IMG/VR virus record: IMGVR_UViG_2534682287_000008
Location: 1-38,438 of that record
Reading direction: 5' to 3' (one strand)
Length of the DNA: 38,438 nt
Source of the DNA: a virus
Lineage: Duplodnaviria > Heunggongvirae > Uroviricota > Caudoviricetes
Shown here: piece after piece, positions 10,383 through 25,286 of the stretch
Layout: every line of letters begins with the position of its first letter
Position numbering within the stretch: position 1 is the first letter of the stretch
Translations under genes and position numbers: made by a program
Notes under the pieces: model-generated
The model's input: only the letters and a program-made list of their open reading frames with translations
Databases searched by the model: none
Told to the model about the DNA's origin: nothing

Positions 10383-11800
10383 TACTCAATCCTTATCTGG
10401 CAGCCAGACAGAGTGACAGGTGACTTCGTGATAACGCGCAATTTGAAGCCAACATTTTTCCTGATTCGCCCGACACGCTTCCACAAAACGCGTTTGTCGT
10501 AAACGAACGGTTCATTTTGCTCAATCATCTGCTCACGCCCGTAATTGATGCCGTCAGTAGTTGCAGAGAGGAACAGTCGGTCAGCATACTGCGCAACGCC
10601 AGTTGAAGATTCAACTTCAAGGTCGAAAACTCTGGCGTTATCCGCTTTGAACAACGGAGTAAACAGCAGGTGTTCCTGTTGCTTTTCGTACTGGCTGCTG
10701 ATATCGAATTGCAATTTCCCGGTCACGGACTCCAGCTTATCGCCGCACGTTATCTGATTGCCTTCGTAAATGAAGTCGATAGCGCGGTACACATCGTCAT
10801 ACAGGCCTGTTTTCAGTACACACCATTGCGGACCATTGGCGCTTGAAGATGCGTCGTACACGAGAACATGGCGCGGAAGATGGATAATCAGCAGCTCATG
10901 CGCATCAAATCGCAGAGACTCCATCACACCATCAGCCAGTTCATCAGCAGTGTAGGAGCGGAGAATTTTCTCAATGCTCGCGCTGGCGATTGGTGATACC
11001 TGACCGGATCCGATGATGTACACAGACGGCGCACCTGTTGCCGGATTGCTGATGAACGCATAAGAATCAGCGAATGGCGTTTTACAGTAAGTCCCGGCAA
11101 TGCCTTTCTGCACCATCAGTGATGGCTGTGCGACATACAAAGCAGCACCAACAGTGGTTGCACCAGTCAGGGAAAAATATTCAATCGTCGATGAACCAAA
11201 GCAGACGATGAAGTCTCGCCATGTTCCGATGCCGATGATGCCGTCAGGCTGAGACTCTGCGCGATATTGTGCGCTGTAACGGTCAGGATGAGATTCGTCT
11301 TCAAGGTCAGTGATAAACCATGAATCAGTACCGTCTTTTGACCACGCATAACGCCCACGTAAGCGCGTAATATCGCGGACTGAGCCTAACTCATACTGCG
11401 TGAATCCGCTGTCTGTAGGCCAGTTTGAGACGGTTTTAACCGTGCCATCATAGCGATACTCGACCAGTTGACCATTAACGCCTACCGCCTGTGATGTCCG
11501 ACCATGCGCCATTGATACACGACCACTTCCGGCAACATCACCGACTTCACTTTCTCCTTTGTACAGCTTGCCGCCACACACGCGATAAACAGCACTCTGC
11601 GCCATGTTGTACTCGACGCCGCGAGATACGCCGTTCACATCAGAGCGTTTGGCAATGCCCGGGAATGAGCGAAGATATCCGCTGCTGTTCAGGATTTCTT
11701 TGGGTGTAGCCAGCATATTCACTGGCAGATAGTCGATATAGTCGGCGTTTCGGAAGTCTTTGCCGACACCTTTCATAAGCGGAAGTTGCTGAATAGGCAT
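10382..11800 (-). CDS. Tail hub / head-completion protein, P22 gp10-like
   Basis: 472 aa, same length and position as P22 gp10. Confidence 0.75.
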
Positions 11801-11808
11801 TTATTCAC

Positions 11809-12291
11809 CTATGCGTTTGGGATATCGCCATCAATCAGAGGGAGATCGCCTGGATAATATCGGTCAGATGTGAACACGTCATATTTATTACCCAGTCCTA
11901 CAGGAAAATCTCCACGTCGTCGCATTGAAGGAACAACCAGAGTGTCGGTCATCAAGGCATCATATGAGCGTTGGGCGTTACTGAGAACTTGCGGAGTTGG
12001 CTCAAGGCTGTAATCAGATAGCATTCTCAGCAATAACTGATAGCCTACTGCGTGTTTGTATTTTCTTGGAAGACCTGACTCATCATCTGGTAATGGCTGC
12101 TCATCTCCAGTTGCGAAAGCGTAACCAATGTCGCCGGGGTTAATCATCCACTCGGACATCATATCTTCCAGATCATTTACACCATCTTCAATTGATTGCG
12201 GCTCAACATCAGTCAGCGATGCATTAGAAGCAATAGCAAACTTACGAAGCGCAAAAAGGACGATCTCACCCTTTGTCAGTACTGTTGCCAT
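11809..12291 (-). CDS. Head-completion / tail adaptor protein, P22 gp4-like
   Basis: 160 aa; synteny between coat and gp10. Confidence 0.75.
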   Translation of the reverse strand: MATVLTKGEIVLFALRKFAIASNASLTDVEPQSIEDGVNDLEDMMSEWMINPGDIGYAFATGDEQPLPDDESGLPRKYKHAVGYQLLLRMLSDYSLEPTPQVLSNAQRSYDALMTDTLVVPSMRRRGDFPVGLGNKYDVFTSDRYYPGDLPLIDGDIPNA

Positions 12292-12451
12292 TGTCTGCCG
12301 CCTTACGACCTCGCTTACTGGTCGGTTTCAATTCATCAACTGAGGCAACAAAGCCCAACTTTTCGAAAAACTGGAAGTCTTTTTCTGCGATAACGGCCTG
12401 TACATGCCCGGATTCGTTATCTGCGGCAAGGAATACACTCATGCGATCCAT
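12266..12451 (-). CDS. Small hypothetical protein between coat and gp4-like genes
   Basis: 61 aa; ATG with AAGGAAACAAT Shine-Dalgarno; follows the coat terminator. Confidence 0.35.
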   Translation of the reverse strand: MDRMSVFLAADNESGHVQAVIAEKDFQFFEKLGFVASVDELKPTSKRGRKAADNGNSTDKG

Positions 12452-12461
12452 ATTGTTTCCT

Positions 12462-12489
12462 TAAAACATAAAAGGGGCGTAAGCCCCTT
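12462..12489 (-). terminator. Rho-independent terminator after coat gene
   Basis: AAGGGGC-ttac-GCCCCTT followed by TTATGTTTTA on the minus strand. Confidence 0.6.
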
Positions 12490-12493
12490 GTTA

Positions 12494-13765
12494 TTACGGA
12501 TTACCGAAGAACTGACCGCCCATGTGAGGGTTAAAGCACACATATGCAGGCAGTAAGTCGAAGCGCATTTTTTGCACGTTGGCATCGCCATCTGCGTATT
12601 TATGTACGCGGATGGAGAAACCTTCATATGTTGCAACAGCAGAATCAATACTGTGCAGTTTCGGCAGTGGGATAGAGCCAAGTCCACAGAAGAACTTGTT
12701 ATAGAACAGGTTTGGCTTCATTGTCTGGCTAGCAGTGCCTACTACAGATACGGCATCGCCTGCCGCTACATGACGACTTACAGAGTTGTACTGCGGGTTT
12801 GTAGTGTCATAAATCGGAACACCAGAAAGCGTAACCGTCACATCGCCACTGCCGTCTGAATCAGCATCAGCAGTAACCGTTGCAGTGAAGCTAATTGGTG
12901 TGGCTCCGTTATACAACGCCTGTTTGGTCTGCTGTTGCAGCCAGTAGGTATTGGTGAATTTAACCTGATCACCAGCTTTCAGGAAACCTGTAACGCTGGT
13001 TGTCGCTCCGGTCAATGTTACAGTGAACTGGTATGAGTCTTTAACTGCGTTATAGGTAACAGTTGGCTGTGTTTTGACTGTCAGTGTTCCGCCAAATGCC
13101 CCCTGCGTACGAGAGGCAAGCCCATTAGACATCAGTGCGCGAATGCCGCCAAAATTGGTTGGGATCTGTGCATTCTCCCATGCAGTACGAACCAATTGAT
13201 CTGAAGCGTGCAAACCAGTCTGCGCATCAGCAAGTCGCTGTGCAGACCATGGATCCATTACAGCATAGTTTTCACCTTCATTAACGCCGAGGTCTTTCAG
13301 GAAAGATGCCGTCTGCGCAACATCAGACCATTTGGTGATTGGAGTATTGGGGCTACCAAGTGACAACGCACCGTTATTCATCATGAAGTGAGCAAGCTCT
13401 ATTTCAAGGTCGGTAACGATTCGCTGGCGAACCGGCGCGAGAATTTCTTCCAGTTGGTTAAGCTTGATCGCTTCCTCCAGTTGCTGATATTCAACAGCAA
13501 CAGTGATGTAGTTACCTACACGCCCCGTAGCTTTACCTGAGATCAGGTTGTTTTTATTTTGCCCTGAAATATCACCAGTGGGAGTACGGAGGGATGAGAA
13601 TTGATGCGGACGTTTAAAGCTAACGCTATCGCCAGTGCTGGAGTTGATTTCACCTGCCAGCAACTGACGGTCTACGGTTTTCGCCAGAACTAAATCTGAC
13701 ATAAAACCCGGAAGGAATTTTTTCAGAACGATTTGACTGACGTTACTGTCGAGATTGTTAGGCAT
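12494..13765 (-). CDS. Major coat protein, P22 gp5-like
   Basis: 423 aa; follows scaffold gene; synteny. Confidence 0.85.
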   Translation of the reverse strand: MPNNLDSNVSQIVLKKFLPGFMSDLVLAKTVDRQLLAGEINSSTGDSVSFKRPHQFSSLRTPTGDISGQNKNNLISGKATGRVGNYITVAVEYQQLEEAIKLNQLEEILAPVRQRIVTDLEIELAHFMMNNGALSLGSPNTPITKWSDVAQTASFLKDLGVNEGENYAVMDPWSAQRLADAQTGLHASDQLVRTAWENAQIPTNFGGIRALMSNGLASRTQGAFGGTLTVKTQPTVTYNAVKDSYQFTVTLTGATTSVTGFLKAGDQVKFTNTYWLQQQTKQALYNGATPISFTATVTADADSDGSGDVTVTLSGVPIYDTTNPQYNSVSRHVAAGDAVSVVGTASQTMKPNLFYNKFFCGLGSIPLPKLHSIDSAVATYEGFSIRVHKYADGDANVQKMRFDLLPAYVCFNPHMGGQFFGNP

Positions 13766-13776
13766 TTATCTTTTCC

Positions 13777-14661
13777 TTATTCGATTTTTGCGCCGGGGCA
13801 TAATTTGTTGAATTCGTCTTGTTTCGCATCAGCACCGCCACCACGTACTTCCGGCTCTGGCTTGATGGCTTTCTTTGGTTTTGGAGCAAGGCTTACCTGT
13901 TTGCTAATCTGCCCCAAGAGGAATGCTGCGCGAATTGGATCTGTCTCAGCGGCTACACGCTGGCGTAATTGCTGGCTCTTACCTAAGCCATAGGCGAGTA
14001 GTTCAGAGCCTTCGTCTGCACAGTGAATGATGATTTCCTGCTGAATTGGTGGTAGCTCACTAAGAACAATGGCCTCCATTTCCTGATAATCTTTCACAGG
14101 AAGTTTGGCTGCCCGTTGTTTATGCGCTTCTACCCTTTGCTGGAAACGCTGTTGGTATTCCTGTTGCTGACGTAGTTTTTGTTGCTGCTGCTGTTCGACA
14201 CGGCCTTTTTTCTCATGCCAATCAGTCAATGCCTGTTCAAACGCCTGTTCGTCATAATCACACGACTCAAGAGTCGGTTTTGGTGGAATAGCGTCTAGTT
14301 GTGGTTGCTGATGTTCCGCAGGCTTGGCTAATGCTTCCTCAAGCTGGCGGCGCAACTCACGGTTTTCTTTCTGTGTTTCTTTGAAGCCTTTGCGAAGATC
14401 TTTCACCCATTGCGGTGCAGGTTGCCCGTCAATGTGATCATCATCGTCAGCGTTAAGCTGAATTTCTTCATCACCAATACGCAAGGCGTAATCTTCTGGT
14501 GTCTCTTCGGTTTTTTCAGGATCAGTTGCCATCTCTTTTCCGTTGTCATCCTGGCTTTTATTCTCAGGCTGTGACTCTGTTTGGATGATGGTTTCTTCTG
14601 CATTTTCCTGTGTTTCAGACAGGTCAATAACCTGACCGTCGATGATCAGTTCGTTTTCCAT
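13777..14661 (-). CDS. Scaffolding protein, P22 gp8-like
   Basis: 294 aa; acidic N-terminus, Gln-rich coiled coil, basic C-terminus; between portal and coat. Confidence 0.8.
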   Translation of the reverse strand: MENELIIDGQVIDLSETQENAEETIIQTESQPENKSQDDNGKEMATDPEKTEETPEDYALRIGDEEIQLNADDDDHIDGQPAPQWVKDLRKGFKETQKENRELRRQLEEALAKPAEHQQPQLDAIPPKPTLESCDYDEQAFEQALTDWHEKKGRVEQQQQQKLRQQQEYQQRFQQRVEAHKQRAAKLPVKDYQEMEAIVLSELPPIQQEIIIHCADEGSELLAYGLGKSQQLRQRVAAETDPIRAAFLLGQISKQVSLAPKPKKAIKPEPEVRGGGADAKQDEFNKLCPGAKIE

Positions 14662-14674
14662 TGATTACTCCTGG

Positions 14675-16801
14675 TTAACTCGGCATTAAGTCTGCCGGTG
14701 ACTGTGGTGGTGACTGGAATTGCTGTTGTTGTGACTCGGCGACATCTTTCAGAAGGCGTATTGCCTCCATCACTGCTTTGTCATCGATGTTTCTGGCTTG
14801 AGCCAGTTTATAGACAGTGTTTGCCTGACTCTCCATCGCATCCTGCTGGGCAGTAAATGCTTTGATTTGAGTTTGAGCAGTTTCGTTAGTTGCTTTTTGC
14901 GCTTCTGCCTGCGCTGCTACCATTTGCGCCTGAGCGAGAACCATTTCAGGATTTGGCTGGCTTTGTGCTGCCATTTGCGCCTGTTGAACAATCTGCTGCT
15001 CTTTCTCATTGCGTGGTTTTGCAATACCAGATATCAGCAGTTGGTTTCGGTTGTACTCTTTGAAGTCATCAAGGCCTTCGCCATCGATATTGTCCAGAAT
15101 AATACCCTGAATTGCCGGGCGCATTGGGTCTGTTGGAAGCATAGAGCTAAGGACATTTGTCAGTACAGAAACCGTTGCATCACGTCGTGCTGTGTAGCTT
15201 GGTCCAACATCAACCGTCACATCGTATCGACCGACAGAAAGGTCATTTAACGCAACAACAGCCCCTGTTTGCCTGTCAACAACCTGTGCGCTCAGGACAG
15301 CGATATCATCACTTCCATCTTCGTTAACGATGCGCACTTCACGTTCTGAACCGTACACTTCACGCGCCATTGACAGCCATACTTCACCAGCGCGTTTAAG
15401 ACTTTTCGCCATATTGTCCAGATAGATAAACGAAGCCATATCTGCTCTGTTCATCAAGTTGTTAACCGTTTCCTGAGCAATATTACTTGGCATCTGCTGC
15501 ATAGCCTGACTGCCGCCTGTAACCTCCTGAATATCTGCACTGGTTTGCTGTAGTAATGCAGCCAATGCCTGATTCATAACCGCAGGCTGTGTATATCCTG
15601 CCGGGGTAGCTCCAGCGATAATGTTGCCAGATTTATCTCTCACTTCGCGCAACGGCAAGAATGCTGGGCGTTTCTTGTTGCGAGCCTCCCAGTGCTTCTC
15701 AAGTCCACGAATTTGCTCCATGCCAACTATAGGGATCTGACCGGGGTCTTGCGCTGCAGTATCAGCCAGCATTGAAACCTGAAGGTTGTACAAACGCTGT
15801 GGATCCATTGCTTTTGCAATGTGCCCTTCGACACGCTCAATGTCATCAATGAACCAGCGTTTTCCATAAACCGGGATGAGGGGGATATGCTCACCAGGAA
15901 TACGTCGAGGTTTCTCAAGGAAACCATCACCATCCACTACGGATACATACACACGACGGCGCTTCACTGAGCGCCTTGCCACTTCCTGAAATCCAGCTAT
16001 TGCCAGTTCATCTTCAATATCTTCAACCTGATCACTGTCGTATGTTGCAATCTCTCCAGTGATTGGATGTCGATAACTGATAACGTCAACAGACTCTTTA
16101 CGAACTTCGTAATACTTCGCTATGTAAATAACATCTGCATCAAACCAGTCATATTCCCAACTGGTCATAGACGTTACGTCCAGAGAAGCAGGAGGTTTCT
16201 TTCCGTATTCAGCCTCATATTTTTCAGGTGACAACGAATACATGCAGAACGCCCACAACGCGTCAGATTTGTCGTACTTCTTAGCGTCAGGGTCAAACCA
16301 CACAGAGCGCGACGGGTCGTATATTGGTTCAATAGCAATACGCTGACGATCGTCCATGGGGTCGTATTCATTGACCAGCATCGACGTCAAACGGAAGCAA
16401 CCGAAACCACCAGTAGCAGCGTCGTCAAATGCATTATCGCAAGCCTCACCGCCATCAGTTTCTTCGTAGTCAGCACGGAACAGACCATTTAATTTATTGG
16501 CTAACTCTTCGCTTGCCTCTCTGTCACCAGGACGAAACTTAACGGTGATTCTGTTATTGCGGTATTCTGCAATGATGCGGTTAAGTTCAGTTGCTACCTT
16601 ATTGATTTCAAACTTAGGATACTTCTCGAACTGCTCATCAAGCTTAGTTCCAGCCGCCGTTGCTCCTTCCCATTGACCTCCGGGGACACGAGCAAACCTC
16701 GTAGCTTCAATGCACTTTTCGCGCACTTCCTGCTGTGGAGAATAGGCGCGGTCAAACCTGAGCATGATCCGCTCATGTTTTTTCTCTAATGTCTCTGCCA
16801 T
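14675..16801 (-). CDS. Portal protein
   Basis: About 708 aa; follows TerL; ATG at 16799-16801 (MAETLEK); ORF track start is a TTG three codons upstream. Confidence 0.85.
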   Translation of the reverse strand: MAETLEKKHERIMLRFDRAYSPQQEVREKCIEATRFARVPGGQWEGATAAGTKLDEQFEKYPKFEINKVATELNRIIAEYRNNRITVKFRPGDREASEELANKLNGLFRADYEETDGGEACDNAFDDAATGGFGCFRLTSMLVNEYDPMDDRQRIAIEPIYDPSRSVWFDPDAKKYDKSDALWAFCMYSLSPEKYEAEYGKKPPASLDVTSMTSWEYDWFDADVIYIAKYYEVRKESVDVISYRHPITGEIATYDSDQVEDIEDELAIAGFQEVARRSVKRRRVYVSVVDGDGFLEKPRRIPGEHIPLIPVYGKRWFIDDIERVEGHIAKAMDPQRLYNLQVSMLADTAAQDPGQIPIVGMEQIRGLEKHWEARNKKRPAFLPLREVRDKSGNIIAGATPAGYTQPAVMNQALAALLQQTSADIQEVTGGSQAMQQMPSNIAQETVNNLMNRADMASFIYLDNMAKSLKRAGEVWLSMAREVYGSEREVRIVNEDGSDDIAVLSAQVVDRQTGAVVALNDLSVGRYDVTVDVGPSYTARRDATVSVLTNVLSSMLPTDPMRPAIQGIILDNIDGEGLDDFKEYNRNQLLISGIAKPRNEKEQQIVQQAQMAAQSQPNPEMVLAQAQMVAAQAEAQKATNETAQTQIKAFTAQQDAMESQANTVYKLAQARNIDDKAVMEAIRLLKDVAESQQQQFQSPPQSPADLMPS

Positions 16802-16803
16802 GT

Positions 16804-18216
16804 TTACCAACCGGAGGATGAGGGAACGTATATTTCAGTTTCTTCACGGTCCAATGCCGGGCAATGCATACACATCATCAGCGCATCAGCCAGGTTAGGA
16901 GATGGAATACCGAGCTTCTGCTTCATTTCGACCTTAGTCATTAGCTCCAGCTTCCCGTTGTTATTGAATTTGCGCTGAATCTGCGTCAGTTCTGCAAACA
17001 GCTTCTCCAGCATATTCTCGCCTATTGCTTCTTTGTCGAAACTCAGCATGTCGTCGGGGTCTGCATACTCACCGTAGACAACCGCCCGATATGTCAGATA
17101 CAGCCTGTCAGCCAGCGCGTAATAGAATTGCGCTCGCTTATTGCGGAATACATCACCAATAGTGCGAACGTTGTCGCCCTGTACGACTTCATCAGCCCAT
17201 GCTCCGGCTTGATACGGTGCATCTTCATTGAATGGCGATTCGCTGCCCTTGAACATCGTGGCGGTGATTTTCTTGCCGGAGAACGCTTCCGTTGTCTGTC
17301 TGCGTAGCCCGGCACCAACACCATCACCATCCCACAGGTAATGGTCAGCGCCGTCTTCAATCGCCAGCGAAGTAGCCCAGTCAGCGCCCTCGTTGATGTC
17401 CATCAGCAGACCTTCGGCAATGCGATTAACTACCGAACCGTGACGCGATGCATAACCTTTAGCATCTGGCCCTGTATCTGACGGGTCATGCGCAGAAACA
17501 ACAGCGCCTTTCGCTTTCCATCCGAGTTTCTTGTGCGCATCGGTTGCGGCTTCAAGCCATTCACGTTTGATGATTGCCATATCACTTGCGCTTACTGGCT
17601 CACCAAGCCAGATGTGACGATACAGTGTCGGATTTCTGCGTTTACACTCTTCCATCTCCAGACGGAGAACTTCAGGAAAGTGCGGGTTGTCGGTGTAGTT
17701 CACCGTCAGCAGACAAATATCATCGGGAGGATTTACGACGAATCGCTGATAGGTATCGTCGAGTATGTTTTTCGGGTTAAAGCTCACCCATATTTCGGAA
17801 AACGGCTTGCGGATGGTTGGTATCAGGATATCCCATGATTCCTTCGTTACCGCTTCCGCTTCTTCCACCCAGCAGATATCAATGCCTTCGAGCGATTTAA
17901 TCTTCGTCGGGTTGTTTTTTATGCCGTAGAACATGAATTCAGCATTCGTTCCGAGATGACGGATCATTGAACGCTGAATTTCAAACTCAGCCGAATACCC
18001 TTCACGCTCGATGGTATCTTCAAGCAACCGGATTACCGAATCGCTGATACTGTTTTGCAGTTCACGAGCGCAGAGAATACGCACTGGCTGACGACGCGCC
18101 GCTTCAACAAGCAGCCTCGCAATTGCCCATGATTTGCCGCTACCTCGACCGCCTTTGGCGACTTTGTAGCGATGCGCCTCAATGAACGGTTCAAAGATAG
18201 GATTAATCGAGGTCAT
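16804..18216 (-). CDS. Terminase large subunit
   Basis: 470 aa; Walker A GGRGSGKS; start overlaps TerS stop (ATGA). Confidence 0.9.
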   Translation of the reverse strand: MTSINPIFEPFIEAHRYKVAKGGRGSGKSWAIARLLVEAARRQPVRILCARELQNSISDSVIRLLEDTIEREGYSAEFEIQRSMIRHLGTNAEFMFYGIKNNPTKIKSLEGIDICWVEEAEAVTKESWDILIPTIRKPFSEIWVSFNPKNILDDTYQRFVVNPPDDICLLTVNYTDNPHFPEVLRLEMEECKRRNPTLYRHIWLGEPVSASDMAIIKREWLEAATDAHKKLGWKAKGAVVSAHDPSDTGPDAKGYASRHGSVVNRIAEGLLMDINEGADWATSLAIEDGADHYLWDGDGVGAGLRRQTTEAFSGKKITATMFKGSESPFNEDAPYQAGAWADEVVQGDNVRTIGDVFRNKRAQFYYALADRLYLTYRAVVYGEYADPDDMLSFDKEAIGENMLEKLFAELTQIQRKFNNNGKLELMTKVEMKQKLGIPSPNLADALMMCMHCPALDREETEIYVPSSSGW

Positions 18217-18740
18217 TTTCCGAATAGAGTGCTCATCGGTGATGTTTCAATCTGTATTGCGCCGCCGTCTTTACCGGTTAGCTCGTGAGAAGCTTGTTCT
18301 TTAAATGCCTGAACGGAAACATGCTTACCAAGAAGTTCGAGGTTTTTGACCTTATCAGGCCATTTGATTTTCTTCAGAAGTGCGGCACTATCTGCGGATA
18401 CCATCTCCACGACATCCATTCCTGATAGCGTTGTGCGCCATACCTTAGGCCAGTCTTTAATGGGCTTTAACTCACCGTTTTGCAGGAGAATGTCGAGCAC
18501 ATCCATCTGGTCGATTTCAATAAGGCGGTTAAGTACATATTCTGCATTAATACCAACAAGATCATTGCGTTGCGCTTTCAGTTCGGAGATTCTTAACTTG
18601 ATGTCAGGTTTTGACAGGTTTTCGGATGCGGTACGGTTAGCTGTCTTTGCGCTGTACCCCGCCCGAATAGCCGCTTGCGTGGCGTTTAAATCGATGAGGT
18701 ACTCGCGACAGAACATTTCTTGCTTGTCAGTGAGTGCCAT
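18213..18740 (-). CDS. Terminase small subunit
   Basis: 175 aa; N-terminus MALTDKQEMFCREYLIDLNATQAAIRAGYS typical of small terminase family; immediately upstream of TerL. Confidence 0.8.
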   Translation of the reverse strand: MALTDKQEMFCREYLIDLNATQAAIRAGYSAKTANRTASENLSKPDIKLRISELKAQRNDLVGINAEYVLNRLIEIDQMDVLDILLQNGELKPIKDWPKVWRTTLSGMDVVEMVSADSAALLKKIKWPDKVKNLELLGKHVSVQAFKEQASHELTGKDGGAIQIETSPMSTLFGK

Positions 18741-18766
18741 GTTTTCTCTTATGAAGGTGATTAGTT

Positions 18767-18979
18767 ATGAGCAAATCTTCGACTGTAAGAAAAGCGTTAT
18801 TTAAAATTGGCGATTCCGTATATTTGAAATCAGGCGGTCCTGAGATGTCTGTATACGAAATCCACGAATTCGGAGGTTCTTTTACTGGAACATACACATG
18901 CCAATGGTTTGCAGGGAAAAAACTTGAGAAAGGACACTTTGCTGAAGAGTCTTTAACGGACACAAACCCAAAGCCATAA
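18767..18979 (+). CDS. Small protein, DUF2158 (YodC)-like
   Basis: 70 aa; motif GDSVYLKSGGPEMSV; antisense to late operon. Confidence 0.5.
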   Translation: MSKSSTVRKALFKIGDSVYLKSGGPEMSVYEIHEFGGSFTGTYTCQWFAGKKLEKGHFAEESLTDTNPKP

Positions 18980-19023
18980 GCCCAAGCGCGTCTCATTTAA
19001 AAGTTGCTGATATAACAAAGTGG

Positions 19024-19263
19024 ATGATGTCCGCATTAGCAACTGACAGATGCCTTTATCAGCAAGATGTTGTCGATTACCTGATAAAGACAGGTAATGA
19101 GCAGCACCTGAAAGAAAATGCAGATGGCAACCAAGTACTTTCAACCAAAGTTATAAATGCATTTAGAGTTGATAGTGGCGATGATGTCGTTTGGGTTAAG
19201 CCAGATAAGTACTGGCGTTTCCGTGTGCCTGAAGACGAAAACGGTCGTGAAGCCCGCGGTTAA
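19024..19263 (+). CDS. Hypothetical protein
   Basis: 79 aa ORF directly downstream of the DUF2158-like gene. Confidence 0.4.
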   Translation: MMSALATDRCLYQQDVVDYLIKTGNEQHLKENADGNQVLSTKVINAFRVDSGDDVVWVKPDKYWRFRVPEDENGREARG

Positions 19264-19326
19264 ACTTATCCACGATAAAAGGCAGCATGCTTAGTGCTGC
19301 CATATTCATCTCACTTAATTGTCATT

Positions 19327-19506
19327 TCAGGTTGAGAACTCTTTTGCACCTTCAATCAATGACTGCTTCAGCAATTCGAGTGTGCCAATCGCCTCACACA
19401 AACTGATTTCACCATCGTAATCATGAATAACGCTTTCAAGCCGCTCGTATAGCTCTTGAGTAATTGGGAATTTCTTCTCCTTACCCAAATTGATTACGCG
19501 GCTCAC
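19327..19506 (-). CDS. Hypothetical small protein, GTG start
   Basis: 59 aa read by hand; GGAG 7 nt upstream of GTG; frame opens immediately after stop of upstream 80-aa gene; absent from ORF track. Confidence 0.3.
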   Translation of the reverse strand: MSRVINLGKEKKFPITQELYERLESVIHDYDGEISLCEAIGTLELLKQSLIEGAKEFST

Positions 19507-19507
19507 A

Positions 19508-19750
19508 TCATGCTCCGGTGGTGAACAGGTCTAACGCTTCCTTCGATTTACGCACCGCTTCGATTGTGCGGGTCGTGATATCTGAATTAGCGCCGCCTGA
19601 CTGGAAGTGAATTTTGAATAGCTCAAGCTTCAGTTCGTCAGTGCCAATGAATTGAAATGCTTCCTCTGCGGCTGCGTTCTGGTTCATGACCAGTTTGTAA
19701 ATCTCTAACTGGAATTTCTGTTCTTCAGTCATGGGGATAATCTCTGCCAT
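19508..19750 (-). CDS. Hypothetical protein, possibly P22 orf80-like
   Basis: 80 aa from ATG at 19748-19750 (MAEIIPMTEEQ) with GGAG 6 nt upstream; ORF track start is an upstream TTG. Confidence 0.45.
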   Translation of the reverse strand: MAEIIPMTEEQKFQLEIYKLVMNQNAAAEEAFQFIGTDELKLELFKIHFQSGGANSDITTRTIEAVRKSKEALDLFTTGA

Positions 19751-19818
19751 TGTTGGCTCCGGTTGTGGTGATGATGTCAAGCAAGCCCATCTTGACTATC
19801 TCAACTAGTCGATTCATG

Positions 19819-20019
19819 ACATATGTCACATTTATACCAACCAGATCATTGCGTTGAGTTTACAACTCAATAATTCTTGGTTGGACGTCAAGTTTTGACG
19901 GTTTTTCGGGTGGCAGTTGATAGCAATCTTAGAACTGCCCCCGAATAGCCGCTTGTGTGGCGTTTAAATCGATGAGGTACTCGCGACCGAACGTTTCTTA
20001 TTTTTCGGTAAGTGCCATT
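19819..20019 (-). pseudogene. Degenerate duplicate of the terS 5' end (start codon plus about 200 bp), premature stop at codon 7
   Basis: Near-identical blocks to 18545-18740, e.g. CGCGAGTACCTCATCGATTTAAACGCCAC and GCGGCTATTCGGG; reads MALTEK-stop. Confidence 0.65.
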
Positions 20020-20766
20020 GCTTATTCTCTTTATTTAGTTAAACTATCTCCCTACGAGCCCATAGGGAGTGCCGGAAGCGATATCGTTCAAGTGGTGAAA
20101 AACATTACAGCAGTAGGACTTTTGTTTTATCCACTGATACCAAAAGCAGTAAAAGTTGTTAGCGATATAGCCAAAAGCAAGGGGGTTGCCATGAGGAAAT
20201 ATTCAGAAAAATTCATGAATACGGTAAAACGCTTAACCTCGAATACCGAAGAACTCACCATGGTCGATGTCGCTCTCTTCTACCTCGGGGGCTGGGTTAC
20301 GTTCCCACTCCCTATGGGCTCAAATCCATCCTAAACTCAATATAACCAATTCGTTTCTGCCTCACATATTGTGCTTTTACTCATTGTCGAGACCACTCAT
20401 TGAATGGCCTCTGCAATAACCGATGTCTTTCCATCAGTCCGCCACCACAAAGAATCTTTTTTGCCATAAGGCTGGAGGTTCATCTTTCAGTGGCTGCCAG
20501 TGTTATTTCCCCACTTACTGGCTTGGGTTGTTTCGCGGTACTGCCGTAACTGGTTGCCCAGAATAAATTCCGGTTTCATTATCAAGCCCACCCGTAGATA
20601 GGCTTTGTAATGAACTGGCTCTTATCTCAACGCAGCCCCTTACCGCGCGCCAGATGCTCAACTTCAAGCATCAGCAATGAGATGTTTAATCTGGATTCAC
20701 TCCAGAAGTGATCACCACCCTGTCTACAGAGCCAGATGTGAAGGATGATGAGTAAAATTATCGCTA

Positions 20767-21234
20767 TCATCGAAGGCATTGCGTCCTGATGTATTCCTGA
20801 AGAGTTCTCAGTGCTGTTTGGTCGCGGATAATTCCGTCCCGGACACCGAGAACGTTTCGTCCAGCAACTGGAGAGAGTTCGACGGTGGCATCATTGCCCA
20901 TGCCGGAGGCGCCGGAGGTTTCGGCTGAGGATGGCACAGGGCATTTTCCTTTGACGAGCACCCTGCCACCATTATCAAGCTTGCGACGAAGAGCATCATT
21001 TTCAGCTTTCGCATCAGCTAACTCCTTCGTGTATTTAGCATCGAGTACATCAGCAGCACGCTGGCGTTGCTGCATGTCAGTAATGGTGGCGGTCGCCTGC
21101 TTCAGCTCACTGACTTTTTTATCACGCTGTTCTTTATAGGCGATGGCGTTATCACGGTAATGATTAACAGCCCATGACAGGCAGACGATGATGCAGATAA
21201 CCAGAGCGGAGATAATCGCGGTTACTCTGCTCAT
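20767..21234 (-). CDS. Rz: Spanin inner-membrane subunit Rz
   Basis: 155 aa; N-terminal transmembrane segment then coiled coil; contains embedded Rz1 frame. Confidence 0.9.
20808..21014 (-). CDS. Rz1: Spanin outer-membrane lipoprotein Rz1 (embedded in Rz)
   Basis: MRKLKMML... lipobox LIMVAGC, proline-rich; in +1 frame inside Rz. Confidence 0.85.
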
Positions 21235-21707
21235 ACCTCAATCTCTCTGACCGTTCCGCCAGCCTCTTTGAATTTTGCAATCAGGTTGTCAGCCTTATGC
21301 TCGAACTGACCATAACCAGCCCCCGGCAGTGAAGCCCAGATATTGCTGCAACGGTCGATAGCCTGACGGATATCACCGCGATCAATCATCGGCAAAGCGC
21401 CACGCTCCTTAATCTGCTGCAGCGCAACAGCGTCCTGGCTTTTGGGAGAGAAGTCTTTCAGGCCAAGCTGCTTACGATAGGCATCCCACCAACGGGAAAG
21501 AAGCTGATAGCGCCCGGCTGCTGTTGATTTGAGTTTTGGGTTTAGCGTGACAAGTTTGCGAGGGTGATCGGAGTAATCGGTAAATAGCTCTCCGCCTACA
21601 ATGACGTCATAACCATGATTTCTGGTTTTCTGACGTCCATTATCAGTTCCCTCTGACCACGCCAGCATATCGAGGAACGCCTTACGTTGATTATTGATTT
21701 CCACCAT
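21231..21707 (-). CDS. R: Endolysin, lambda R-type lytic transglycosylase
   Basis: 158 aa, [35 protein letters not shown] matches lambda R. Confidence 0.9.
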
Positions 21708-22014
21708 CTTCTACTCCGGCTTTTTTAGCAGCGAAGCGTTTGATAAGCGAACCAATCGAGTCAGTACCGATGTAGCCGATGAACACGCTCGTTATATAAG
21801 CGAGATTGCTACTTAGTCCTGCGAAGTCGAGAAGGTCACGAATGAACCAGGCGATAATGGCGCACATCGTTGCGTCGATTACTGTTTTTGTAAACGCACC
21901 GCCATTATATCTGCCGCGAAGGTACGCCATTGCAAACGCAAGGATTGCCCCGATGCCTTGTTCCTTTGCCGCGAGAATGGCGGCTAACAGGTCATGTTTT
22001 TCTGGCATCTTCAT
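21691..22014 (-). CDS. S: Holin / antiholin, lambda S-type with dual start (Met1-Lys2-Met3)
   Basis: 107 aa, [43 protein letters not shown] matches lambda S. Confidence 0.9.
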
Positions 22015-22132
22015 GTCTTACCCCCAATAAGGGGATTTGCTCTATTTAATTAGGAATAAGGTCGATTACTGATAGAACAAATCCAGGCTACTGTGTTTAG
22101 TAATCAGATTTGTTCGTGACCGATATGCACGG

Positions 22133-22169
22133 GCAAAACGGCAGGAGGTTGTTAGCGCAACCTCATGCC
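22133..22169 (-). terminator. Terminator-like hairpin in late leader upstream of S
   Basis: GGCATGAGGTT-gcgctaa-CAACCTCCTGCC followed by GTTTTG on the minus strand. Confidence 0.45.
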
Positions 22170-22305
22170 ACCCGCTTTCACGAAGCCAGCCATTGCGCTG
22201 GTTTTCTTTTATGCAAAGCACACCGCACCGTAGCCACAGCGGATAAGGTGATTATTTTTGTCTGTCTGGTATTTGGTTTGATGCGCTTTCAGAAAGGTCG
22301 TGCTT

Positions 22306-22340
22306 AAAACGCAAAAAGCCCCGAGCTATTAACTCAGGGC
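22306..22340 (-). terminator. Rho-independent terminator just downstream of late promoter (tR'-like)
   Basis: GCCCTGAG-ttaatag-CTCGGGGC followed by TTTTTGCGTTTT on the minus strand. Confidence 0.6.
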
Positions 22341-22376
22341 TTTATTTAACGAGTGCATTTATCCATCGTTGAGTCA

Positions 22377-22405
22377 AATTTACCCAACTTTATTCAAAAA
22401 GTCAA
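22377..22405 (-). promoter_or_regulatory. Late promoter pR' with Q-utilisation region
   Basis: TTGACT - 17 nt - TAAATT followed by TTGACTCAACGATGG, the lambda pR' arrangement. Confidence 0.6.
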
Positions 22406-22447
22406 TATTATGCCGTTAATATGTTGCCATCCGTGGCAATCATGCTG

Positions 22448-23071
22448 CTAACGTGTGACCGCATTCAAAATGTTGTCTGCGATTGACTCTTCTTTGTGGC
22501 ATTGCACCACCAGAGCGTCATACAGCGGCTTAACAGTGCGTGACCAGGTGGGTTGAGTAAGGTTTGGGATTAGCATCGTTACAGCGCGATATGCGGCGCT
22601 TGCTGGCATTCTTGAATAGCCGACACCTTTGCATCTTCCGCACTCTTTCTCAACAACTCTCCCCCACTGCTCCGTTTTGGCTATATCAACCGCCCGACCT
22701 GTACCGTGGCAATCTCTGCATCTTGCGCCCGGCGTCGCGGCACTACGGCAATAATCCGCATAAGCGAATGTTGCGAGCACTTGCAGTACCTTTGCCTTAG
22801 TATTTCCTTCAAGCTTTGCCACACCACGGTATTTCCCCGATACCTTGTGTGCAAATTGCATCAGATAGTTGATAGCCTTTTGTTTGTCGTTCTGGCTGAG
22901 TTCGTGCTTACCGCAGAATGCAGCCATACCGAATCCGGCTTGTGATTGCGCCATCCCCATAGCAGCCATCACATCAGTACCGGAAAGAGAGTCAGAAGCC
23001 GTGGCCCGTGGTGAGTCGCTCATCATCGGGCTTTTTGGCGAGTGAAATTTAGCTACGCTTTCGAGTCTCAT
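22448..23071 (-). CDS. Q: Late antiterminator Q (lambda-type)
   Basis: 207 aa, MRLESVAKFHSPKSPMMSDSPRATASDSLSGTDVMAAMGMAQSQ matches lambda Q. Confidence 0.9.
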   Translation of the reverse strand: MRLESVAKFHSPKSPMMSDSPRATASDSLSGTDVMAAMGMAQSQAGFGMAAFCGKHELSQNDKQKAINYLMQFAHKVSGKYRGVAKLEGNTKAKVLQVLATFAYADYCRSAATPGARCRDCHGTGRAVDIAKTEQWGRVVEKECGRCKGVGYSRMPASAAYRAVTMLIPNLTQPTWSRTVKPLYDALVVQCHKEESIADNILNAVTR

Positions 23072-23256
23072 GGTCTTCCCCTCTTGCCCTGTTTGACCAT
23101 CAGGACGCCGTTAACTATTACGTGACGCTCGCCTTTGCTGTCTCGGTTGTACTTGAGCACTGTTCCTCTTGCGCAGGAAAGCATCCTCGCCACTTCGGTC
23201 TGATTGCCTCGTGTCTGGATAAGAAGCTCTGGTATCGTTTGAATTATGGCGTTCAT
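23068..23256 (-). CDS. ninH: NinH-like small DNA-binding protein
   Basis: 62 aa; GNQTEVARMLSCARGTVLKY resembles lambda NinH. Confidence 0.65.
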   Translation of the reverse strand: MNAIIQTIPELLIQTRGNQTEVARMLSCARGTVLKYNRDSKGERHVIVNGVLMVKQGKRGRP

Positions 23257-23615
23257 GCGTTCTCCAGTTCGGTGATTTTTATTCCAAGCCTTCCGCCTGG
23301 TACTTTCACGCCACGAATTACGCGAATGTCATCGAATTGCTCGTCGTCTTCCGCAAATCCAGCGTGGATAAGGGAGTCGAGTAAACCTTTCAGGATGTTG
23401 TCGAGGTCGCGGCGGCGGGAGTCTGGAACGTCTGCGATGACTTTGATACGGAGTCGTGATTTGGTGAAAATGTCTAACTTGAGTTGGCGGATGATTTTCT
23501 GAACGTCTTTTCTGTATTTCTGGCCTTTATCGCTAATGTAATATTGGCTTCCTCGTCTTCGCCAGTAGGTATTCACCGACGGTGGGTATGGAAGCACAAA
23601 CTGATATTCGTTCAT
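23253..23615 (-). CDS. rusA: Holliday-junction resolvase RusA
   Basis: 120 aa; LPYPPSVNTYW and RRRDLDN motifs. Confidence 0.85.
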   Translation of the reverse strand: MNEYQFVLPYPPSVNTYWRRRGSQYYISDKGQKYRKDVQKIIRQLKLDIFTKSRLRIKVIADVPDSRRRDLDNILKGLLDSLIHAGFAEDDEQFDDIRVIRGVKVPGGRLGIKITELENA

Positions 23616-23902
23616 GACTTAATCTTCCCCTCCTTCAGCAGTATCGCCTGCGTCCTGATCACGCCTTCGAGGTGGTAAAGTCTGGCGTCTTTGTTGTCGA
23701 GGTTATGGGTGCGTCGGTCGATTTCATCGTGACACGCGCTACAAGCCCATGCTCCGATCAGGTCGTCAGGTTTCATTCCCGTTCCGCAAATTCCAGCCAT
23801 CCGGTAATGTGCCAGAACTGTAGTTTCAGGATTACCATTGCATACGCCGTAAATACGTACCTGGCATTCTCTTCCGCGCGCTTCTTTGCGTAGGTTAGCC
23901 AT
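23612..23902 (-). CDS. Cys-rich DUF1364-family protein (YbcO-like)
   Basis: 96 aa; C13, C21, C39, C54, C57; position upstream of rusA as in DLP12-type nin regions. Confidence 0.55.
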   Translation of the reverse strand: MANLRKEARGRECQVRIYGVCNGNPETTVLAHYRMAGICGTGMKPDDLIGAWACSACHDEIDRRTHNLDNKDARLYHLEGVIRTQAILLKEGKIKS

Positions 23903-24107
23903 TTACCTTCCCTCGCAATTGAAGAATTGACTGAAGGTCTTTTTTAATAAATATGCGAGTGCGAATTGAGCAGTAGTTTTCCTTCATTCTGGCGTAGTAA
24001 TAGTCCTTTCGTTGTTTAAGCTTGTTGGCATCCGCTGTCATCCAGTCTTTTACAGCAAACTTAATTAACCAGCGGTGGCAGAGATACCATTTCAGGTAAT
24101 CATTCAT
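23895..24107 (-). CDS. Hypothetical protein
   Basis: 70 aa; start overlaps NinF stop (ATGA). Confidence 0.35.
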   Translation of the reverse strand: MNDYLKWYLCHRWLIKFAVKDWMTADANKLKQRKDYYYARMKENYCSIRTRIFIKKDLQSILQLRGKVNG

Positions 24108-24276
24108 CGTCTTCTTCCTCGTACATTGAGCTATTCGGATCGCTCATCAGTTCTGCGCAGCAGTGCTCACACACGTGAACTTCCAGCACATGCAGCTTCT
24201 GGCCGCAGTTAGCGCACGTTAAAGCTCGCTCGACGCTTTCTTTCTGGTATTGAAGGGATTGGGATGGGCTAAGCAT
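24100..24276 (-). CDS. ninF: NinF-like protein
   Basis: [44 protein letters not shown] matches lambda NinF. Confidence 0.7.
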   Translation of the reverse strand: MLSPSQSLQYQKESVERALTCANCGQKLHVLEVHVCEHCCAELMSDPNSSMYEEEDDE

Positions 24277-24676
24277 GGCTTTCACCATTAAAAAGTCGCT
24301 TGTAAGCATCAATGTCTCGTTTTGCTTCACCAAGCTTTCGTCTTAATTCCATGTTTTCTGATTCAAGCTTTTCCATGTCTTGTTGGTATCGATCGCGGTG
24401 TTCTTTCCATGCTTTTTGATACGCCTTCATGTATGTCATGTTGGCCTTTCTCTTTGCCTGACGAACTGCGTGGTGGTTTTTCACAAACCAGTCAGGGTCG
24501 TTAAATGCTGCTCTGGCGCATGTATACCAATAATTTGTTGCCTCCCTGTTTAGCCAATAAATACTGATAAATGGCAACCGGATAGACACCATTTTTCGTT
24601 GTGACTCTTTCTCGCCAAACATGTGGCCTTTTTTGATGCTAAGTCCAAATCCAGGTTGAATTAAAAGCATTGTCAT
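24269..24676 (-). CDS. Hypothetical protein with C-terminal coiled coil
   Basis: 135 aa from ATG at 24674-24676 overlapping NinE stop; GAGGAA Shine-Dalgarno; ORF track start is an upstream GTG. Confidence 0.5.
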
Positions 24677-24849
24677 TTCCTCGCACGATGTCTTAGCCAC
24701 CGGATATCCCACAGGTGAGCCGTGTAGTTGAAGGTTTTTACGTCAGATTCTTTTGGGATTGGCTTGCGTTTATTTCTGGAGCGTTTCGTTGGAAGGTATT
24801 TGCAGTTTTCGCAGATTATGTCGGTGATGCTTCGTCGCTGTCGTCTCAT
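24673..24849 (-). CDS. ninE: NinE-like protein
   Basis: [40 protein letters not shown] matches lambda NinE. Confidence 0.7.
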
Positions 24850-25286
24850 GCCGCCCTGTCTCCCCATCTTGCTTTCCACTCCAGAGCCAGTCGAGCTTCG
24901 TCTGACCACTTAACGCCACGCTCTGTACCGAATGCCTGTATAAGCTCTAATAGCTCCGCAAATTCGCCTACACGCATCCTGCTGGTTGACTGGCCTATTA
25001 CCACAAAGCCATTCCCGGCAAGGTTAGGAACAACGTCCTGCTGCTTTAAGGCTGCGGTAAACACACACTTCCAGCTTTCTGCATCCAGCCAGCGACCATG
25101 CCATTCAACCTGACGAGAGACGTCACCTAAGCAGGCCCATAGCTTCCTGTTTTGGTCTAAGCTGCGGTTGCGTTCCTGAATGGTTACTACGATTGGTTTG
25201 GTTGGGTCTGGAAGGATTTGCTGTACTGCGTGAATAGCGTTTTGCTGATGTGCTGGAGATCGAATTTCAAAGGTTAGTTTTTTCAT
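24846..25286 (-). CDS. ninB: NinB (Orf-family recombination mediator)
   Basis: [46 protein letters not shown] matches lambda NinB. Confidence 0.85.

Follow-up and report, generated by a model that had tools for sequence, protein, structure and literature searches.

A dead 5' fragment of a small terminase gene beside accessory genes in a tailed-phage genome: an old mosaic scar that may act as a promoter arm

Lambdoid phages carry morons, accessory genes described by Hendrix and co-workers that bring their own expression signals and lie in the opposite orientation between conserved late genes. The genomes around them are mosaics; modules are sharply bounded at the starts of genes, and new joints arise where there is microhomology, leaving fragments of genes behind. 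The pid moron locus of phage P22 (NC_002371.2 40357-40998) has been described in two papers, in neither of which a terminase origin is mentioned (Cenens et al. 2013, PMC3573128; a transcriptional study of 2022, PMC8835761). Its published boundary lies at position 40998 (PMC3573128). Transcription of pid was reported to start at nucleotide 40880, 174 bp upstream of the pid ATG, from a weak promoter whose -10 box (AATCCT, 181-186 bp upstream of the ATG) was called eroded by the authors and in which up-mutations were described (PMC8835761). A truncation that kept the -35 box and 35 nt upstream of it still lost activity (PMC8835761), so the pid promoter requires more than its hexamers.

The stretch of DNA analysed here, called the window, comprises the 38,438 nucleotides of a Caudoviricetes virus record (IMGVR_UViG_2534682287_000008) and contains the 5' end of a small terminase gene (terS) twice. 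A BLAST comparison of the terS 5' region with the whole window gave a single non-self match, the runners-up being chance words of 11-12 nt. Copy A (18490-18740, minus strand), the first 83 or so codons of the live gene, aligned with copy B (19774-20018, minus strand) at 74.6% identity over 252 columns with 8 gap columns (E = 1e-41), which places the repeat noticed in a first-pass annotation far beyond chance. A repeat finder gave 72% for 18490-18628 against 19774-19912 and 90% for 18662-18740 against 19940-20018, with the longest stretches of exact identity measuring 31, 16 and 14 nt. The annotation had set the copies at 18545-18740 and 19819-20019, which is the right region but slightly short, the homology covering about 83 codons and not 65. 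The copies are direct, lie 1.28 kb apart and flank four small open reading frames of 70, 79, 59 and 80 amino acids, as had been described. The premature stop reported at codon 7 of the upstream copy is also present (MALTEK, then stop), together with two later stops and indels. Copy B, referred to below as the stub, resembles terS over those codons only and has no intact reading frame for a PF03592 protein; it is a pseudogene fragment and cannot make TerS protein.

The live terS (18213-18740, minus strand) encodes 175 amino acids and belongs to the Pfam family Terminase_2 (PF03592, E 1e-39), scoring 136.7 bits against a gathering cut-off of 26.1 over profile positions 1-136 of 141. Among PDB sequences, 3ZQP (G1P of Bacillus phage SF6) was matched by residues 3-76 and 4DYC (gp1 of Sf6) by residues 143-175. 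To judge from these matches, the protein is a chimera of a Terminase_2 N-terminal DNA-binding and oligomerisation part and 33 C-terminal amino acids like those of Shigella phage Sf6 gp1. The live TerS and the ancestor of the stub share a homologous N-terminal helix-turn-helix domain with G1P of the SPP1/SF6 type (Terminase_2; PDB 3ZQP, 2CMP). The difference is that the live protein of the window ends in the 33-residue Sf6 gp1-like tail (4DYC), matching its large terminase of Sf6/HK620 type, whereas the stub is unable to make such a protein at all.

The stub and its exact joint to the neighbouring orf80 were also found in P22, some 30 P22 relatives, lambdoid prophages of the E2348/69 type, E. 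coli Z1323CEC0019 and Escherichia sp. E1V33, and the working terS of all these other carriers is unrelated to it. In P22 it lies at NC_002371.2 40745-40999, where it is unannotated, in the layout stub-orf80-orf59c-gene 3, with neither the YodC and DUF6953 genes of the window nor a second terS copy. The stubs of E2348/69 and Z1323CEC0019 share 93-94% identity with the window stub and that of P22 shares 86% (253 nt, 31 records), against 74.6% for the window's own terS; over window positions 19291-20017, which hold the stub, orf80 and orf59c, identity to P22 is 91.5%. Comparison thus gives directly the homology, the distribution and the joint and lesions held in common: four stub lineages have the same stub/orf80 joint and the same 1-nt deletion, and in E2348/69, where the surroundings are lambda-like, the joint survives with 8 nt of orf80. 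Stop codons and indels occur in the stubs of every lineage, and the frame is lost in different ways, by the codon-7 stop in the window, by loss of the start in the E2348 type and by a GTG start with a frameshift in P22. The translation of the stub still resembles a divergent TerS with conservative replacements, so that much of the divergence is older than its death. A search for an intact parent allele with a stub-specific 31-mer matched stubs only.

On these comparisons the upstream copy is an old dead terS fragment and not a duplicate made in this genome. The first-pass annotation had read it as a scar of a cassette captured next to terS. The part of this reading that stands is that the copy is a dead 5' fragment marking a recombination joint; it was not left by capture of a cassette here, as the stub, the joint and the 1-nt deletion are common to P22 and the E. 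coli stubs. The annotation had also held that the same stub without inserted cargo in related phages would speak against capture, and this is essentially the arrangement of P22. Among 50,697 phage records, 5,426 complete E. coli genomes and 80 IMG/VR loci, no further genome combined the stub with a live Terminase_2 terS, and a 23-mer across the junction had no match in a set of one genome per species. The sole match for the combination was the window's own IMG/VR contig.

The joint of terS-derived sequence with the native orf80 leader lies at 19751-19773 (minus strand), homology to HK620 and Kapi1 stopping at 19764 and homology to terS at 19774; measured from the start codon of orf80, these ends lie 14-24 nt upstream. 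The orf80 homologue (DUF2560, 80 aa, 19508-19750) and the homologue of P22 Orf59c (59 aa, 19327-19506), both on the minus strand, are conserved late-region genes of P22-like phages. They stand upstream of terS in P22, HK620, Kapi1 and Sf6 whether the stub is present or not, in the direction of the late operon. The four-gene moron island proposed earlier is therefore reduced to two accessory genes, one for a YodC-family (DUF2158) small protein of 70 aa placed head-to-head with terS (18767-18979, plus strand) and one for a DUF6953 protein of 79 aa (19024-19263, plus strand). This pair is absent between orf59c and terS in P22, HK620 and Kapi1 and accompanies the live terS in other prophages, for example in E. 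coli AST240 and NCTC9104. Like a moron, it is set between neighbours that adjoin each other in relatives, runs in the opposite orientation and is followed by a GC-rich hairpin (19281-19301) that stands between DUF6953 and orf59c and is terminator-like on the minus strand. One arm of this hairpin is now formed by a ten-base relic, ATGGCAGCAC (19294-19303, minus strand), just downstream of orf59c, which in alignments with P22, Z1323CEC0019, HK620 and AST240 corresponds to the first bases of P22-type gene 3, another type of terS. The position of a gene 3 start after orf59c indicates that the live terS arrived later, and the relic marks a second replacement of terS.

On its other side the stub is head-to-head with an accessory segment, X (20019-20381, plus strand), its own partner and outside the bracket drawn by the first-pass annotation. 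X holds a 47-aa open reading frame (20191-20334; phrog_36259), for which AGGGGG resembles a Shine-Dalgarno sequence. A stable RNA fold of its plus strand (z = -3.1) is closed by a perfect 16-bp inverted repeat (20056-20071 and 20306-20321). The other boundary of the slot is a segment (20382-20560) conserved in all compared phages downstream of a rha/kilA-type gene. The window locus therefore resembles that of pid in its slot between the conserved post-rha segment and orf80, in a terS-derived arm of 255 nt with an identical joint to orf80, and in a cargo that opposes the late operon. The published pid boundary at 40998 is the end of the stub, and pid adjoins the stub in all 30 phage records that were compared. 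The loci differ in that the cargo of the window is X (the 47-aa frame or a structured RNA), no pid homology having been found in the window, and in the presence, in the window, of a live terS from the stub's family at a distance of 1.28 kb. The head-to-head cargo is different in each of the four stub lineages, namely pid, a 76-aa frame, X and a 160-aa frame.

In P22 the pid promoter and start site, 136 of the 174 nt of the pid 5' leader and the -10 up-mutations all map inside the stub, at 40745-40999. By alignment, the counterpart in the window stub is predicted on the plus strand at 19849-19884, with a -35 box TTGCGT (19849-19854), a 17-nt spacer, a -10 box AATTCT (19872-19877) in place of the AATCCT of P22, and a start near G19884. 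The hexamers of this arrangement, TTGCGT-17-AATTCT, are conserved by position with P22; between window and P22 they differ at 2 of 12 positions and the spacer at 5-6 of 24, so they are not clearly better conserved. A scan of the stub with a consensus promoter found none, and a terminator-like hairpin (19886-19900) followed by GTTTTTCGGG stands right after the predicted start. Among lineages the stub diverges most in its transcribed 5' part (66-82%), so that no leader function tied to a particular sequence is conserved. In the live terS an antisense promoter is predicted at 18565-18600 (plus strand; -35 TTGCGT at 18565-18570, -10 GATTCT at 18588-18593, start near 18600) from its positional homology to the mapped pid promoter. 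Only 26 nt separate the terS ATG (18740) from the YodC ATG (18767), and any YodC promoter must therefore lie inside terS; by analogy with pid, the one predicted here would drive both YodC and DUF6953.

The same arrangement was surveyed in 80 IMG/VR loci with an intact terS of the Terminase_2 type like the live gene. In 68 of the 80 a frame of at least 40 aa starts head-to-head within 60 nt of the terS ATG, a pattern seen directly in the comparison; the gap is mostly 12-30 nt and too short for a promoter outside terS. Clustering of these cargos, to which pid and the frame of X were added for comparison, gave 22 families, 20 of them from the surveyed loci; pid and the X frame both stayed singletons. 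A search for defence or Pfam functions among the cargo families gave none above threshold, the matches being weak ones to CxxCxxCC and DUF2441. Of the loci surveyed, 72 retain the hexamers, 66 of them with cargo; in eight, two of which have cargo, the -10 box lacks its final T, an association drawn largely from one clade. That T comes from the codon of Arg50, which is AGA, while the other five arginine codons within the first 90 codons are all CGN.

The history that emerges from these comparisons begins with one illegitimate crossover, at a few bases of microhomology, between a Terminase_2-type terS (near codon 83) and a site some 14 nt upstream of orf80, in a phage ordered orf80-orf59c-(other terS). 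The recombinant retained the complete foreign terS, leaving the 5' 250 nt of the old gene behind as the stub, which then spread among P22-like and lambda-like prophages. In the lineage of the window the terS downstream of orf59c was replaced again, from its fourth codon on, by an incoming module of the form hairpin-DUF6953-YodC-terS(Terminase_2). This second replacement explains why a live gene of the stub's own family now stands 1.28 kb from the stub.

As to why the stub has persisted, the 5' coding part of Terminase_2-type terS may bear a weak antisense sigma-70 promoter, TTGCGY-17-RATYCT, launching whichever accessory gene stands head-to-head with terS, and the long 5' leader would likewise lie within terS. 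Once terS had been severed, the arm with the promoter would have stayed with the accessory gene as one unit, and for the uptake of new cargo from phages whose terS is intact the stub would be the sole homology on that side. The window would then hold two platforms, the live terS driving YodC and DUF6953 and the stub driving X. That the stub is an old terS fragment persisting as a promoter platform for a head-to-head accessory gene is considered the probable reading, though not a secure one; promoter activity in the window and in the intact terS genes, and selection keeping the stub, are deduced from sequence. More tentatively, the terS 5' region may be of dual use throughout, read backwards as a conserved weak promoter and leader for rapidly exchanged cargo of temperate enterobacterial phages (at least 20 unrelated families, 80 contigs) and important enough to be kept as a 250-nt fossil after terS replacement; pid of P22 would be driven by such a fossil, and the window would have one live and one fossil example. 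The locus would then share with lambdoid morons the opposite-strand cargo, sharp boundaries, microhomology joint and leftover fragment, but differ from them in that the promoter arm is a piece of an essential packaging gene, the live gene appearing to serve as the arm in relatives. The unusually long 5' leader and "eroded" promoter of P22 pid would have an origin as the antisense of a dead small terminase gene. As a general rule this suggests that in this terS family the packaging gene would double as a platform for expression and an anchor for recombination at a cargo hotspot; were this confirmed, it would help to predict where temperate enterobacterial phages keep cargo expressed in lysogens, and why some gene fragments survive.

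A functionless stub is the first alternative to be weighed. The remnant of the same ancient crossover may simply be wedged between a selected cargo and orf80, the cargo being transcribed from elsewhere or by read-through, and hitch-hiking with the neighbouring selected genes would likewise keep it. The stops and indels of every lineage fit such a stub, as do a 5' part that diverges faster than the synonymous sites of orf80, the lack of a detected strong promoter within it, and HK620, Kapi1 and NCTC9104, which are without both stub and cargo. Yet in P22 the pid start and the -10 up-mutations fall inside the stub (PMC8835761). Stub and cargo always occur together, a minimum of three exchanges of cargo having left the stub in place, and the short spacing at most of the 68 intact-terS loci with cargo leaves no room for a promoter outside terS. 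A purely neutral remnant is therefore regarded as rather unlikely.

In the Bacillus phages SPP1 and SF6, the pac sequences to which the small terminase binds lie around the 5' end of the gene encoding it. By analogy, the stub might keep part of a pac site and offer the live Terminase_2 TerS a second or decoy initiation site. This would agree with the homology of the N-terminal domain of the live TerS to SF6 G1P and with the low synonymous variation of intact terS, in which mean third-position entropy is 0.39 in the first 30 codons against 1.02 in codons 60-90 (about 2.6-fold less variable). Conservation of the first 80 nt of terS is still 82-89% in phages of Erwinia, Hafnia and Morganella, and the best-kept part of the window stub (90%) is this same region. 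Against it, no pac site is known for this type of terS in P22-like phages, and the resident TerS is unrelated in most stub carriers (P22, E2348/69), where retention would go unexplained. The 5' part is also the least conserved among stub lineages, and the pairing of stub and live terS is unique to the window among the sequences searched, which would make any such role accidental. A packaging relic is accordingly judged improbable.

The model of a recent in-situ duplication, in which a four-gene cassette was inserted and the upstream copy then decayed, could draw on the two direct copies around four small genes and on E. coli A11, where X is joined directly to an intact terS like an "empty site", but it is extremely unlikely, since the copies are not each other's closest relatives (74.6% against 93-94% to stubs in genomes that have no Terminase_2 terS), the stub/orf80 joint and the frameshift are common to P22, orf80 and orf59c adjoin terS in phages without the stub, and the gene 3 relic makes the live terS the later arrival. 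What appears as a fresh duplication around a captured island is instead an old mosaic scar that has gone unannotated in the P22 reference genome.

Two other candidates were rejected. The stub was considered as a small coding gene, since a 62-aa "terminase small subunit" is annotated in Salmonella phage P6, and the frame was found not to be conserved. X, with its perfect 16-bp terminal repeat, was considered as a mobile miniature inverted-repeat element, and few carriers, a single slot and no target duplications were found. No known RNA family or tRNA was detected in the 18-21 kb region or in the whole window, and none of the 50,697 phage records contains X. Directly beside an intact terS, X recurs in E. 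coli A11 and in two IMG/VR contigs with 363 of 363 positions identical, yet the first 75 nt of the stub, which adjoin it, show 6-8 differences from the intact alleles. All told, X is confined to the phage of the window (the window itself and IMG/VR contig L029), two genomes of E. coli and two more IMG/VR contigs, in one and the same slot each time.

The window is the genome of a P22-like (Lederbergvirus-type) phage in reversed orientation. In minus-strand order, the Q-like antiterminator (22448-23071) is followed by holin, endolysin and Rz (20767-22014), and the region in question sits between Rz and the small terminase gene terS (18213-18740); terL (16804-18216, minus strand) comes next, then portal and so on. 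The first-pass annotation had noted that the 5' end of terS is copied upstream, and this proved to be real. A repeat search aligned 18490-18628 with 19774-19912 at 72% and 18662-18740 with 19940-20018 at 90%, and the pair is the single non-self BLAST match within the whole window (74.6% over 252 columns, E 1e-41). The longest exact blocks between the copies are 31, 16 and 14 nt, and the homology is about 83 codons long, as against the 65 first given. The upstream copy, a dead terS 5' fragment referred to here as the stub (19774-20018, minus strand), translates as MALTEK-stop-ETFGREYLIDLNATQAAIRGQF-stop-...L-stop-TQRNDLVGINVTYVMNRLVEIVKMGLLDIIT; it contains three stops and carries two deletions. 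Stops aside, its reading is that of a divergent TerS in which many replacements are conservative, and therefore much of the 25% divergence is older than the death of the stub. Judged from these alignments, the stub derives from a different terS allele than the live gene. Owing to the stop at codon 7, recombination between the copies gives a dead terS unless the crossover falls within the first 18 nt; since such events mostly kill terS, the repeat should be stable under selection for growth.

The stub is shared with other phages and prophages. Window 19291-20017, which holds orf59c, orf80 and the stub, is 91.5% identical to P22, and 31 P22-type records match the stub by itself, with about 86% identity along 253 nt. 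The P22 copy (NC_002371.2, 40745-40999) carries no annotation and is unrelated to the working P22 terS, gene 3; two automated annotations, of phages P6 and vB_ST415_1NRH, label the stub 'terminase small subunit'. Among complete E. coli genomes, two sorts of prophage give the closest matches (93-94%). One is P22-like and has a terS of P22 type (Z1323CEC0019); the other is lambda-like with a Nu1-type terminase (E2348/69 and others), and its stub retains the joint along with 8 nt of orf80. Escherichia sp. E1V33 has a fourth lineage, and all four have in common the joint ...CACCACAAC/CGGAGCCAACAATG (orf80) and a 1-nt deletion. HK620 and Kapi1 have orf80 and orf59c and lack the stub; they align with the window as far as 19764 and again from 20382, with 48 nt between these points versus the window's 617 nt. 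As terS homology ends at 19774, the breakpoint is placed within 10 nt, and coincides with a short microhomology (terS ...AACGGTGAG, joint ...AACCGGAGCC). A second terS 5' copy was found in none of 80 IMG/VR loci with intact terS.

It had been proposed that terS was duplicated locally around a captured four-gene moron island. The dead terS fragment stands, the local origin does not, as the stub is shared with P22 and E. coli prophages, and the cargo is smaller than was thought: orf80 (DUF2560) and orf59c, both conserved genes of the late operon, lie directly 5' of terS in P22, HK620, Kapi1 and Sf6 and are not cargo. The plus-strand pair (YodC/DUF2158 and DUF6953) adjoins the same terS type elsewhere, in the prophages of NCTC9104 and 18KM2445, which also have orf80/orf59c, and in that of AST240, which lacks them. 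The whole 18200-20800 arrangement, stub included, occurs in 0 of 50,697 phage genomes and 0 of 5,426 complete E. coli genomes; a metagenome-derived contig, IMGVR_UViG_3300045988_152060, is 99.9% identical to window 10694-24876. The window feature is one more example of a kind already known, a mosaic scar together with the P22-like moron slot.

The P22 cargo gene pid adjoins the stub in 30/30 phage records. The limits published for the 'pid moron' are NC_002371.2 40357-40998 (PMC3573128), of which the right one coincides with the end of the stub. Transcription of pid was mapped to a start at nt 40880, with a 174-nt leader and a weak -10 box, AATCCT, 181-186 bp 5' of the ATG, in which two up-mutations fall (PMC8835761). 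Given the pid ATG at 40706, it follows that the terS stub, read antisense, supplies the pid promoter, the mapped start and 136 nt of the leader. The word terminase occurs in neither PMC3573128 nor PMC8835761, and tracing the pid promoter to a fossil terS is a modestly new link. Alignment with P22 predicts a plus-strand promoter in the window stub (TTGCGT-17-AATTCT, 19849-19877, start G19884), and alignment likewise predicts one in live terS (TTGCGT-17-GATTCT, 18565-18593, plus strand). The pid-type promoter is weak, and the hexamers show no clear excess conservation. Directly 3' of the predicted stub start, a small hairpin, CGTCAAGTTTTGACG, is followed by a T run, GTTTTTCGGG (19886-19910, plus strand); intact terS genes have a weaker form of it and the P22 stub has none. 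The hairpin might attenuate the predicted antisense transcript or make it more stable.

Intact loci show a comparable arrangement. In 80 IMG/VR loci with intact terS of this Terminase_2 family (75-100% protein identity), cargo was scored as any ORF on the opposite strand that is 40 aa or longer and starts no more than 60 nt from the terS ATG. Such a head-to-head ORF was found in 68, with a gap of mostly 12-30 nt. This is too short for a promoter, so that cargo transcription would have to start inside terS, as mapped for pid. Clustering with six comparison ORFs gave 22 cargo families, almost all without a Pfam or PADLOC match; the 20 drawn from the loci are mutually unrelated, pid and the ORF of segment X (see below) are singletons, and the 76-aa ORF beside the E2348/69 stub belongs to one of the 20. 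The terS 5' flank looks like a cargo hotspot with a putative promoter inside terS. TTGCGY-17-RATYCT is present in 72/80 loci, 66 of them with cargo, and the -10 lacks its final T in 8/80, only two of which have cargo; the association is only suggestive because it is largely one clade. Arg50 (18591-18593), which gives the final T of the putative -10 on the opposite strand, is AGA in most alleles, and the other five Arg codons within codons 1-90 are all CGN. Cargo expression from inside terS is offered as a testable generalisation. From the P22 data and the spacing argument, we infer that the stub may have been kept as both promoter arm and recombination anchor of a head-to-head accessory gene.

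Identities among the four stub lineages were compared region by region. They are 66-82% in the cargo-proximal 134 nt of the stub, about 80% in the promoter core, 93-100% in the orf80-proximal 84 nt, and 95-97% in orf80 over all sites (86-92% at third codon positions). By this gradient, the stub is the zone where two modules of different history meet, one made up of cargo and the 5' part of the stub, the other of its 3' part and orf80. It agrees with cargo exchange via crossovers in terS homology. The window stub is intact-like to about nt 88 and Z1323-like past that, in agreement with a crossover in the 31+16-nt identity block.

Head-to-head with the stub lies an accessory segment, X (20019-20381, plus strand), 363/363 identical to the segment directly 5' of intact terS in E. 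coli A11 and two IMG/VR contigs; X is hence the native neighbour type for this terS 5' end. All copies compared at base level (A11, the two contigs, the window's own contig) are 100% identical, and X was not found in 50,697 phage records. A perfect 16-bp inverted repeat (20056-20071/20306-20321) closes a plus-strand RNA fold of -86.7 kcal/mol (z = -3.1, 20040-20340), which has no Rfam match and contains a 47-aa ORF (20191-20334). Relatedness changes sharply at the stub ATG: X and its flank are 100% identical to A11, and between the first 75 nt of the stub (19944-20018) and any intact allele there are 6-8 differences, codon 7 stop included; four changes in codons 5-11 alter an amino acid or create a stop. 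A simple recent crossover does not account for this.

Live terS (Pfam Terminase_2) is itself, by its matches, a chimera. Residues 3-76 match the small terminase G1P of Bacillus phage SF6 (PDB 3ZQP), and the last 33 (18213-18311) match gp1 of Shigella phage Sf6 (PDB 4DYC); the C-terminal codons are 92% identical to HK620 gene 3 over 77 nt. The Sf6-like tail is consistent with the adjoining Sf6/HK620-type large terminase. The first 80-90 nt of the family (window 18651-18740) keep 82-89% nucleotide identity even in Erwinia, Hafnia and Morganella phages, where the rest of the gene has no detectable similarity. Synonymous sites of intact terS vary 2.6 times less in codons 2-30 than in codons 60-90, and third-position entropy is 0.39 at the 5' end versus 1.02 further in. 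A pac site, translation signals or recombination could underlie this conservation.

Directly 3' of orf59c, ATGGCAGCAC (19294-19303) equals the first ten bases of P22-type gene 3 and is a second, tiny terS relic; it also makes one arm of a terminator-like hairpin (19281-19301). A P22-type terS was thus replaced, from about its fourth codon, by the Terminase_2 terS with YodC-DUF6953, and the succession in the window lineage is Terminase_2, P22 type, Terminase_2. The evolutionary history has good support: an old illegitimate crossover within terS left the stub, the stub spread, and a live terS of the same family was re-acquired later. The joint at the gene 3 relic is also found in E. coli AST240.
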